From Balanoglossus misakiensis (taxonomy: Eukaryota > Animalia > Hemichordata): a stretch of DNA of 64,000 bases. Shown in pieces: positions 18,235-20,570 of this stretch. Position numbers and translations under genes: made by a program. The DNA lies in contig CM082579.2 of the NCBI GenBank assembly GCA_040954595.2, positions 15,848,550 to 15,912,549 of the forward strand, written 5' to 3'. Numbering within the stretch: position 1 is the first letter of the stretch; each line of letters begins with the position of its first letter. The notes below the pieces were generated by a model. That model saw nothing but the letters and a program-made list of their open reading frames with translations, ran no database searches and was not told the origin of the DNA.

Positions 18235-20570
18235 TTACACTGAAACTGCGCTTATTTCGCTTGGTTTGCAGTTGGGACAAGAAAACAGTGCTTTTTTCTT
18301 AATTTCGGTTGGTGTAACATTCACACACGCTCCATGAAACCATTCATAGCAATAATCACACTGGATCATAAGTTTCCCATCATCAGGTTTCCTGCAAAGG
18401 CAATATACTTCACCCATTCCTGCGCTGTCCTTAAGTAAGGTCTTCCTAAAGGTTACTATCCAGCGAGGAAGCTCTTTATCCTGGCAAGGCTTTAGCCGAT
18501 CGTGATGGGCGGTCCAAACCTCTCTTCGCAATTTGATGCGGAAGAGATAGGGTGTGATTTTGGTGATGATGACCCCTGGTCCTTTCCAAGGTGGGCACAG
18601 TTTACGGCATTTGCCTTTCGTGGATCCGGTATCCAACAGATATACTGGATCCCCGACCTTGAAGGACTGCTTGTTCACTCGGAGGTCGTAATCACGTTTC
18701 ATTCTTTCTTGTGTGGTCTTCAGTATTTCCCGCGCTGTCTCATGAGAATTCATTATGGCCTCCTCCAATTCGTACACATACCCCTCATGAGATTGGTCAG
18801 TGTTTGTCCTGGGAGGCCGGAATACAAGATCAGCGGGCTGGTTTATTTCCCTACCTAACATCATCCGGTTGGGCGTAAAACCAGTGCTGCGGTTGACTGA
18901 AGAGCGGAGAGCTCCGGCGATCTGTGAGAGAAATTTATCCCATTCTTTCTGTGACTTGATGTAGCATCTGATTGCGTTCATCAAAGTGCGATTCTGCCGT
19001 TCCGCCTGGCCATTAGCAGATGGTCTGTAAGAAGTGGTTCTTGTTTTATGGATATGAAGAATCTCACAAATCACTGAAAATAACTGACTTTCAAAGTTTC
19101 TTCCCTGGTCAGTGTGAATTTCAAATGGATACCCGAACCTGGTAAAGAATTCAGCTACTGCGGCGTGTGCTGTTTCCTCAGCATTTTGGGTTGGCAGCGG
19201 TATACATTCTACCCACTTGGTGAATTGATCTACCATTACCAGGATATAATCATTACCTCGAGGTGTCTTGGGTAACGGCCCTAGGAAATCCAAGTGAACT
19301 CGTTCCATCGCTGCCCCCGCATGAAATAGGGTCAGCTGATGTCGGTGGTGTCTGTGTGCTTTCTTGTCGTGATTGCAAATTGCACACATTGTGACATACT
19401 TGCGGATGTCGTGGGACATCCTATACCAATGGTATTTGGTCCTGATTCTGGCTTGAGTGCGCTGTATTCCCTGGTGCCCACAAGATGGAATATCATGATT
19501 CAACCGTATAACTTCATCTTTCATGGTATTAGGGATGACTAGTTGTTTGGTGTTTTCATCTGTGGCCGACTTTCTCCACAGTACTCCCTCCTCAATGAAG
19601 TATAGGTCACGGTTGATCCAATAATTCTTTGCTGCAGGGCTGGAGAGTCTCAGCTCTCCTTCCTCAGGAACTTTCCCAGTTTCAAGCCATGTGATGAGAA
19701 TCCCCAGTGTTTTATCAGTCTGCTGTGCCTGTTGGTATTCTTTGTGAGAATATCCTAGGATGGCTGTTCCCAGTTTAGTGGAATCCTCTCTGGATAGTAT
19801 GCAGACTTGTACAGGATCCGGAAAGTGGGAAATTTCGAGGTTCGAATGAGGCACGTCGATTAGTTCGTCCTGGACTGTGTCACGGGTGATTCCGCAGCAA
19901 GTTAATAGACCCAAGTTACCTCCAGGGTCCCATGGCCAGGTCTCTTCATCTTGAATTGCTGGTTGTATTTGTGGGTCCATGCTACCGGTACATTGGTTCA
20001 CCACATATGGCCCTTCTTTTTGGTGGAGTTGGCTGTTCCTGTGTTTGTCTCTGGGTTCAGCCATGGTAAGGGGAATTACATCATCCACCTCATTGATGAA
20101 CGGGCTCCAGTTTCGATGTGCTCTGCTGCAATAGTTGCATCCCCCGCAAGGTAAGGATTCCAATTTTGTTCCATGCTCAAAATTGGTGCAGGCACTTTGC
20201 TCGGGTAATCTTGACAGGGAGTCGGCGTTGATGTGTTGTTTTCCTGGTCGGTGTTGCACAGTAAAGTTGTACTGGCTTAGTTCTTCTAGCCAGCGAGCTA
20301 ATTGGCCTTGTGGTTCTTTGAATCGTATTAGCCATAGCAAACTGTGATGATCTGTCCGTACCAGAAATTTATTACCAAGCAAGTAGTATCGAAACTGCCG
20401 GGTGAACCTTACGACTGCCAGCAATTCTTTTCTTGTGGTGCAGTACCGTCTCTGTTCAGGTGTCAGGGCATAACTTCCATAAGAAATTGTTCTCTCCTTG
20501 CCGTTCTGTATCTGGGATAACTCAGCTCCGATGGCAAAGTCTGAGGCATCCGTGTCTAGAATGAAGTTAT
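18235..20570 (-). CDS. pol: Pol 3' part: RNase H, integrase (HHCC + DDE) and C-terminal PHD finger
   Basis: [98 protein letters not shown]...CPNC. Confidence 0.93.

Follow-up and report, generated by a model that had tools for sequence, protein, structure and literature searches.

A PHD finger on the integrase tail of a Ty3/Gypsy retrotransposon family, found in Balanoglossus misakiensis, is a candidate reader of histone H3 methylated at lysine 4

The sites at which retroelements land determine the harm that they do and the ways in which they rewire gene regulation, and the textbook tethers of integration are chromodomains (directed to histone H3 methylated at lysine 9, H3K9me), LEDGF, and BET. 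The chromodomains found at the C-terminus of chromovirus integrases direct integration (Gao et al. 2008, as cited in the consulted part of PMC6673714). PHD fingers in transposons are also already known. According to the portions of the sources that were consulted, they occur in CR1-like long interspersed nuclear elements (LINEs; Kapitonov and Jurka 2003) and in REM1 (Perez-Alegre 2005), both cited in PMC6673714, in Ginger1-9_HM (the Ginger1 transposases being Gypsy-integrase-like with extra C-terminal domains; PMC2836005), in the Rehavkus and Chlamys elements (PMC8557442), and in the Gypsy polyprotein of Gypsy-7a_cRei from Chlamydomonas reinhardtii, which has intergenic insertions at 2.6-fold over expectation and for which targeted insertion has been raised (10.1101/2022.06.16.496473). 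The form in which such a finger forms the integrase tail of an animal Gypsy element is little described, and no account of a PHD finger at the C-terminus of integrase in animal Gypsy elements came up in a literature search from which Repbase and paper supplements were left aside. The locus considered here lies in a 64,000-nucleotide stretch of the genome of the hemichordate Balanoglossus misakiensis (contig CM082579.2, positions 15,848,550 to 15,912,549; hereafter the window, with positions counted from its first nucleotide). It is an 11.4 kb Ty3/Gypsy long terminal repeat (LTR) retrotransposon at 15042-26409, with its genes on the minus strand, and its integrase ends in a PHD finger.

The second part of the pol gene is a stop-to-stop open reading frame (ORF) at 18235-20589 of the minus strand, which encodes 784 amino acids under the standard code. 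Pfam recognizes RT_RNaseH (residues 8-107), Integrase_H2C2 (352-410), and rve (428-523) in this one frame, together with a PHD finger (PF00628) at residues 730-774 (E = 9.7e-9; score 35.6 bits, gathering threshold 24). A preliminary description of this locus had placed a PHD finger in frame with integrase, and the interval it gave, 18268-18408, exactly brackets a complete C4HC3 finger, which is encoded on the minus strand. All eight zinc ligands (C730, C732, C744, C747, H752, C755, C771, and C774) are present in C4HC3 order and with canonical spacing, from the first Cys codon at 18400-18402, directly preceded by that of Y729 (18403-18405), to the last at 18268-18270. The finger thus forms the final ~50 residues of the RNase H-integrase frame, with 10 residues between its end and the stop. 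When the last 71 residues were compared with the PDB using phmmer, 79 distinct PHD sequences were matched at E <= 0.01, the top ones being PHF2 (3kqi, E = 1.1e-13), PHF8, CFP1, Spp1, DIDO1, and BPTF (range E 1e-13 to 6e-11).

An AlphaFold2 (AF2) model of residues 350-784 (435 amino acids) has a mean predicted local distance difference test (pLDDT) score of 70, with values of 75-84 in the finger, for which short strands are modeled at model residues 392-394 and 401-403. The order of domains in the model is H2C2, catalytic core, SH3-like C-terminal domain (CTD), a helix, a short low-confidence linker, and the finger. With the whole model as the query, the best Foldseek matches are the integrases of prototype foamy virus (PFV) and Ty3 (7q5b), and only integrases are found among the matches listed. 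By following the SH3-like CTD, the finger occupies the position that is taken by the chromodomain in chromoviruses, which agrees with what had been proposed for it.

The fusion of finger and integrase is widely shared. Residues 560-784 were used as a query to find 119 related proteins (best identity 56%), and 78 of these carry PF00628 plus integrase domains, the finger-bearing ones coming mostly from bivalves, gastropods, and echinoderms. Named sources of the relatives include Mytilus, Pinctada, Pecten, Haliotis, Nucella, the crinoid Anneissia, and the sea urchin Diadema. An intact C4HC3 motif is present in 72/119, nearly always within 28 residues of the protein end, and six further relatives have partial or truncated fingers. 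The same arrangement recurs in wider collections: the last 144 residues gave 552 matches at E <= 1e-10 among 1.84 billion representatives, 69 of the best 150 representatives (50% identity) cover both the integrase CTD and the finger, and the finger directly follows integrase in 16 of 80 metagenome loci. In two intact relatives among these loci (L001 and L003), pol ends 9-21 nt past the finger. Residue conservation was counted over 73 finger-bearing sequences, with rows picked by the C4HC3 motif. M741 and W750 are invariant (73/73 each) and G738 nearly so (72/73), the position of Y729 is Tyr in 56, Phe in 15, and His in 2, and that of D745 is Asp in 62 and Glu in 6; the 11 residues ahead of the finger are unconserved. 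The preliminary description had named lack of conservation among copies as grounds for giving up its proposal, and the opposite was found. A FastTree phylogeny computed on integrase columns only, with those of the finger excluded (107 rows, after removal of the 13 matches, out of 119, whose alignment does not span the integrase), places 80 rows in one clade (support 99), made up of 67 with a PHD finger, 6 with a partial one, 6 truncated, and 1 other. The finger is a family property, retained in a clade of marine-invertebrate elements that is both large and old.

The integrase relatives that lack a PHD finger (P0095-P0119, 41-50% identity) have tails of their own, in which an acidic stretch with L..LF is accompanied by a basic GR..R.P..L.DY end. 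Judged by sequence, these tails may represent an alternative docking motif at the same place.

What the finger may bind can be gauged from PHF2, for which the consulted part of PMC9898751 gives a cage for trimethylated lysine 4 of histone H3 (H3K4me3) formed by Y7, Y14, M20, and W29, with E22 contacting R2 and F19/I21 contacting residue 3. In the phmmer alignment, Y729 corresponds to Y7, D736 to Y14, M741 to M20, W750 to W29, Q743 to E22, and L740/I742 to F19/I21. Three of the four cage walls are therefore kept, and these are the Tyr, Met, and Trp to which the preliminary description had assigned a cage, while the fourth is Asp. W750 is a Trp two residues ahead of the His ligand, M741 lies on the first β-strand, and an aromatic residue, Y729, precedes the first Cys, as is found in the H3K4me3-reading subclass of PHD fingers. 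The same source reports that three-walled W-M-Y cages, such as that of ING2, still bind H3K4me3/2. The top PDB matches listed above, from PHF2 to BPTF, are themselves all readers of H3K4me3. As three of the four PHF2 cage residues are retained, the predicted ligand of the finger is an H3 tail that carries methylated lysine 4 (H3K4me3/2).

Taken together with the position of the finger, this prediction leads to a proposal that is held with moderate confidence, namely, that the integrase-tail PHD finger binds the K4-methylated H3 tail and docks the integration complex on the nucleosomes of active or poised promoters. The finger would first engage H3K4me3/2; once bound, it would tether the integration complex to nucleosomes bearing this mark, and the landing of new copies would be steered by H3K4 binding, as it is by the chromodomains of chromoviruses. 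The tethering step is suggested by this analogy, because chromodomains at the same position direct integration.

Several observations weigh against this proposal. The fourth wall of the PHF2 cage (Y14) is Asp (D736) in the window copy, which consequently lacks the full four-walled cage, and the same position among the 73 relatives is Asp in 35, Trp in 21, Tyr in 9, and Cys in 4, such that an aromatic Trp or Tyr is found in 30/73. In addition, the R2-contacting Glu22 of PHF2 is replaced by Gln (Q743), and with these two substitutions the affinity and the preferred methylation state may differ from those of PHF2. The invariance of the eight zinc ligands in the 73-row set exists by construction, since its rows were selected by motif. 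A second, small PHD clade of 6 rows is placed among the PHD-less groups, such that the finger may have been gained more than once. Lastly, the sole insertion seen lies in a satellite and not in an obvious promoter.

Of the other explanations, the one that fares best holds that the finger does bind methylated H3 but confers a benefit other than target choice, such as retention of integrase or the pre-integration complex in chromatin or the nucleus, or the promotion of the new copy's transcription or its protection from silencing. The domain evidence, comprising the Pfam and PDB matches and the conservation of residues, serves it equally well, a single insertion outside a promoter fits it, and the consulted parts of two papers on transposon PHD fingers (10.1101/2022.06.16.496473, PMC8557442) discuss these in terms of chromatin remodeling, not targeting. 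It is nevertheless considered unlikely, as finger and integrase are one covalent chain, with the finger at the C-terminus, which is the tethering site of chromoviruses (PMC6673714, in the part consulted), and because the PHD-less relatives keep other conserved tail motifs there, which suggests that this place holds an exchangeable docking module.

It is quite improbable that the finger instead recognizes a non-histone partner, be it a host protein carrying methyl-lysine or a product of the element itself, its Gag or the TatD DNase of its third ORF (ORF3, below), in order to serve assembly or regulation. Such promiscuity has a precedent in PHF2, the finger of which also binds a K4me3-like peptide of VRK1 (PMC9898751, in the part consulted), the window copy lacks the fourth cage wall, and the finger and ORF3 occur together in 11 of the 16 PHD loci. 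The nearest solved relatives, however, are all H3-tail readers, and the coupling to ORF3 is not strict, as four loci without the finger have it too. It is scarcely credible, even though the window copy is broken elsewhere, that the finger arose as a motif by chance, is a relic of decay, or came from a host exon that this copy alone took up, because chance is ruled out by the strength of the Pfam and PDB E-values, the finger lies between the LTRs and in the integrase frame, and its conservation, with 78/119 relatives and 16 loci carrying it and with residues other than the zinc ligands invariant, contradicts a relic. The proposal that the finger reads H3K4 methylation and docks the integration complex is thus the one retained here.

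The element in which the finger resides has the hallmarks of Ty3/Gypsy elements, that is, TG...CA ends of the LTRs, a short target-site duplication, a primer-binding site, a polypurine tract, and a gag gene followed by protease, reverse transcriptase, RNase H, and integrase in this order (Table 1). The two LTRs differ by 1 mismatch in 261 (15122 versus 26229), which points to a recent insertion, and the element is structurally complete. The primer-binding-site-like string TGGCGCTGCGAC is presumably complementary to a tRNA 3' end of the form ...GCGCCA. The N-terminus of Gag (24870-24966, minus strand) contains a helix-hairpin-helix (Pfam HHH_3, E = 4.8e-8), a motif not usually seen in the Gag of retrotransposons.

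Table 1. Features of the retrotransposon and its surroundings, in window coordinates.
Feature	Position	Strand	Basis or remark
5' LTR, 261 bp, termini TGTAGTAA...TTACTACA	26149..26409	-	direct repeat of 15042-15302
3' LTR, 261 bp	15042..15302	-	direct repeat of 5' LTR
Primer-binding-site-like TGGCGCTGCGAC, 2 nt past 5' LTR	26135..26146	-	position after LTR
Polypurine tract immediately upstream of 3' LTR	15303..15323	-	sequence
Target-site duplication TATA, 4 bp	15038..15041, second copy 26410-26413		single TATA in undisrupted site of 10 other satellite units
gag ORF, ATG 24966, stop 23443-23445	23443..24966	-	PNMA E 5e-10, Retrotrans_gag E 1.1e-6
pol part 1: protease and reverse transcriptase, ends inside RNase H region	21248..23386	-	gag-asp_proteas E 2.6e-10, RVT_1 E 3.2e-31
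pol part 2: RNase H, integrase (H2C2, DDE core, SH3-like CTD), short linker, PHD, stop	18235..20589	-	Pfam, AF2, Foldseek
PHD finger proper, Y729 to C774	18268..18405	-	C4HC3; cage candidates Y729, M741, W750; D736 at fourth cage position
Foreign insertion in pol, 687 bp	20571..21257	-	13-bp duplication (20558-20570, 21258-21270); ends AATAAA...(ATT)n
ORF3, ATG 18199, 35 nt past pol stop	15425..18199	-	TatD_DNase PF01026 E 8.4e-35
Host macrosatellite flank, ~2 kb units with 81-bp sub-repeats	12392..15041, resumes 26410 to window end		repeat analysis

The window copy has nevertheless been damaged. The pol proteins of four relatives align on both sides of the 687-bp insertion with no gap in the protein. 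The 182-amino-acid ORF of this insertion has no Pfam match, and its protein is unrelated in sequence to that of the LINE at 768-4383; the insertion is most likely a 5'-truncated fragment of a non-LTR element (LINE). Since it splits the frame upstream of integrase, the window copy is unable to make integrase from its own pol, and it is dead, though the finger is still in the integrase frame. The gag and pol frames of this copy do not overlap (the gag stop lies at 23443 and pol opens at 23386, minus strand); an overlap of the two in a -1 arrangement is seen in L001 and L003, which are intact.

Contigs assembled from two DNA sequencing runs (X1 and X2) of one host sample extend these observations. 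The main contig across the finger is identical to the window, and a minor variant differs within the finger by one synonymous change (C730) and within the linker by five changes, four of which alter an amino acid. Word depth on the element is ~300 in X1 and 1000-1600 in X2, against 2.5e5 and 8e5 on the satellite, values that lack a single-copy baseline and are thus not copy numbers; the LINE fragment (311) and the surrounding element (287-306) have about equal depth. No contig joint that skips 20571-21257 is listed among the host contigs, which are unable to show the absence of copies free of the fragment. Two joints in X2 (16883>19227 and 17821>20349) were discarded, as many loose ends of this run start or end with GATC and look like ligation junctions. 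Three host contigs that run past the LTR edge at 15302 continue there in dissimilar sequence (agreement 0.53), which hints at other flanks for the LTR in the host.

The preliminary description had also located this copy in a satellite and had regarded this as a puzzle. The location stands, as both flanks consist of a repeat whose ~2 kb unit contains 81-bp sub-repeats, and the macrosatellite spans 12392-64000 save for a few interruptions, with 162/328/490-bp higher-order periods; in the host contigs, it reaches a word depth roughly 700-fold that of the element. The target string is found uninterrupted in 10 further units of the satellite within the window. The puzzle itself is weak, given that a single insertion is at issue, that this copy is dead, and that the satellite has an observed/expected CpG ratio of 1.07. 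The corresponding ratio is 0.77 in the element and 0.57 in the non-satellite left part (1-11900), and because 1.07 contrasts with 0.57, the satellite does not look like long-methylated DNA, which is a weak hint. One insertion is uninformative on target preference, and a broken copy may survive in the satellite simply because it is harmless there. The idea that the satellite might be an array of RNA genes was rejected, since Rfam and tRNA scans of the window gave no match.

Elsewhere in the window, a separate non-LTR retrotransposon occupies 768-4383 of the plus strand, with Baculovirus FP protein domain 2 (PF25298, E = 3.4e-16) in its ORF1 and an apurinic/apyrimidinic endonuclease and reverse transcriptase in its ORF2. 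Open frames of 191, 491, and 191 codons at 6200-8251 (minus strand) and 8693-9268 (plus strand) have no Pfam match, and a 70-bp tandem repeat (6.6 copies, 98% identity) is found at 34706-35170, within a non-satellite interruption of the array.

The element carries a second unusual gene in ORF3. Its product has a conserved Cys/His knuckle and helical module (~amino acids 322-450 of protein P0002), which a disordered spacer separates from the TatD DNase at the C-terminus. ORF3 matches E. coli TatD (4pe8, E = 1e-11), and HFHLD, GEVGLD, LHIRG, HNFTG, and ETDSPY fall in columns that are conserved in at least 80% of 28 ORF3 sequences, corresponding to what we take to be the metal-binding motifs of TatD (HxH, GE-x-GLD, two His, and ETD-x-P). 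A TatD domain lies 1.2-2.6 kb downstream of the finger in the eleven PHD loci mentioned above (L001-L004, L006-L008, L010, L024, L040, and L046). Of the remaining five, four stop too soon downstream to be judged, and L005 has 2.6 kb of downstream sequence without TatD; the four loci with TatD and no finger are L012, L014, L015, and L023. Thirty-nine ORF3-like proteins of 527-1085 residues are largely of bivalve origin (Crassostrea, Saccostrea, Dreissena, Pinctada, Argopecten, Magallana, and Mya). No paper dealing with TatD genes in LTR retrotransposons turned up in a literature search, and a giant-squid paper was set aside as a precedent, as TATDN2 is named there only as a gene close to the Hox cluster. 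The companion gene poses the question of why a retrotransposon would have its own DNase, and a role in the processing or clearing of reverse-transcribed DNA is speculation.

A broader picture can be sketched, albeit tentatively and as one that is rather doubtful as a whole. The lineage found in bivalves, gastropods, echinoderms, and their kin might be the active-chromatin counterpart of the chromoviruses, in which H3K4me3 would be read and new copies would land next to promoters, while the element's own TatD would trim or clear reverse-transcribed DNA, and sister lineages would have swapped the finger for acidic or basic tails that dock on other host factors.

Among known systems, the chromoviruses resemble this element most closely in layout, as these are likewise Ty3/Gypsy elements with a histone-methyl-lysine reader fold after the integrase CTD, to which a similar tethering role is attributed in the sources consulted. 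The element described here differs by having a PHD finger in this place, with a predicted specificity for H3K4me3 instead of H3K9me, and by its TatD-encoding ORF3. Pfam detected no chromodomain family in the proteins of the window element at E <= 0.01. It is not a chromovirus, but it may work in a chromovirus-like manner. Gypsy-7a_cRei shares the combination of a Gypsy polyprotein and a PHD finger; compared by its description only, in the part consulted, it is a green-alga element that has the finger between RNase H and integrase. The PHD fingers of CR1, REM1, Ginger1-9_HM, and Rehavkus are, as far as the consulted portions of those sources describe them, likewise accessory chromatin-related domains of mobile elements, found in other element classes or at other domain positions. 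With the cellular H3K4me3 readers PHF2, PHF8, CFP1, Spp1, DIDO1, and BPTF, the finger shares the C4HC3 spacing, the Y/M/W cage positions, and the β-strand context FMI-x-CD, and it departs from these in having Asp at PHF2 Y14 and Gln at Glu22, and in residing on a transposon integrase and not on a chromatin enzyme. If the proposal is true, a reader of the active-promoter mark that is encoded by the element itself and carried on its integrase would constitute a new natural tether.

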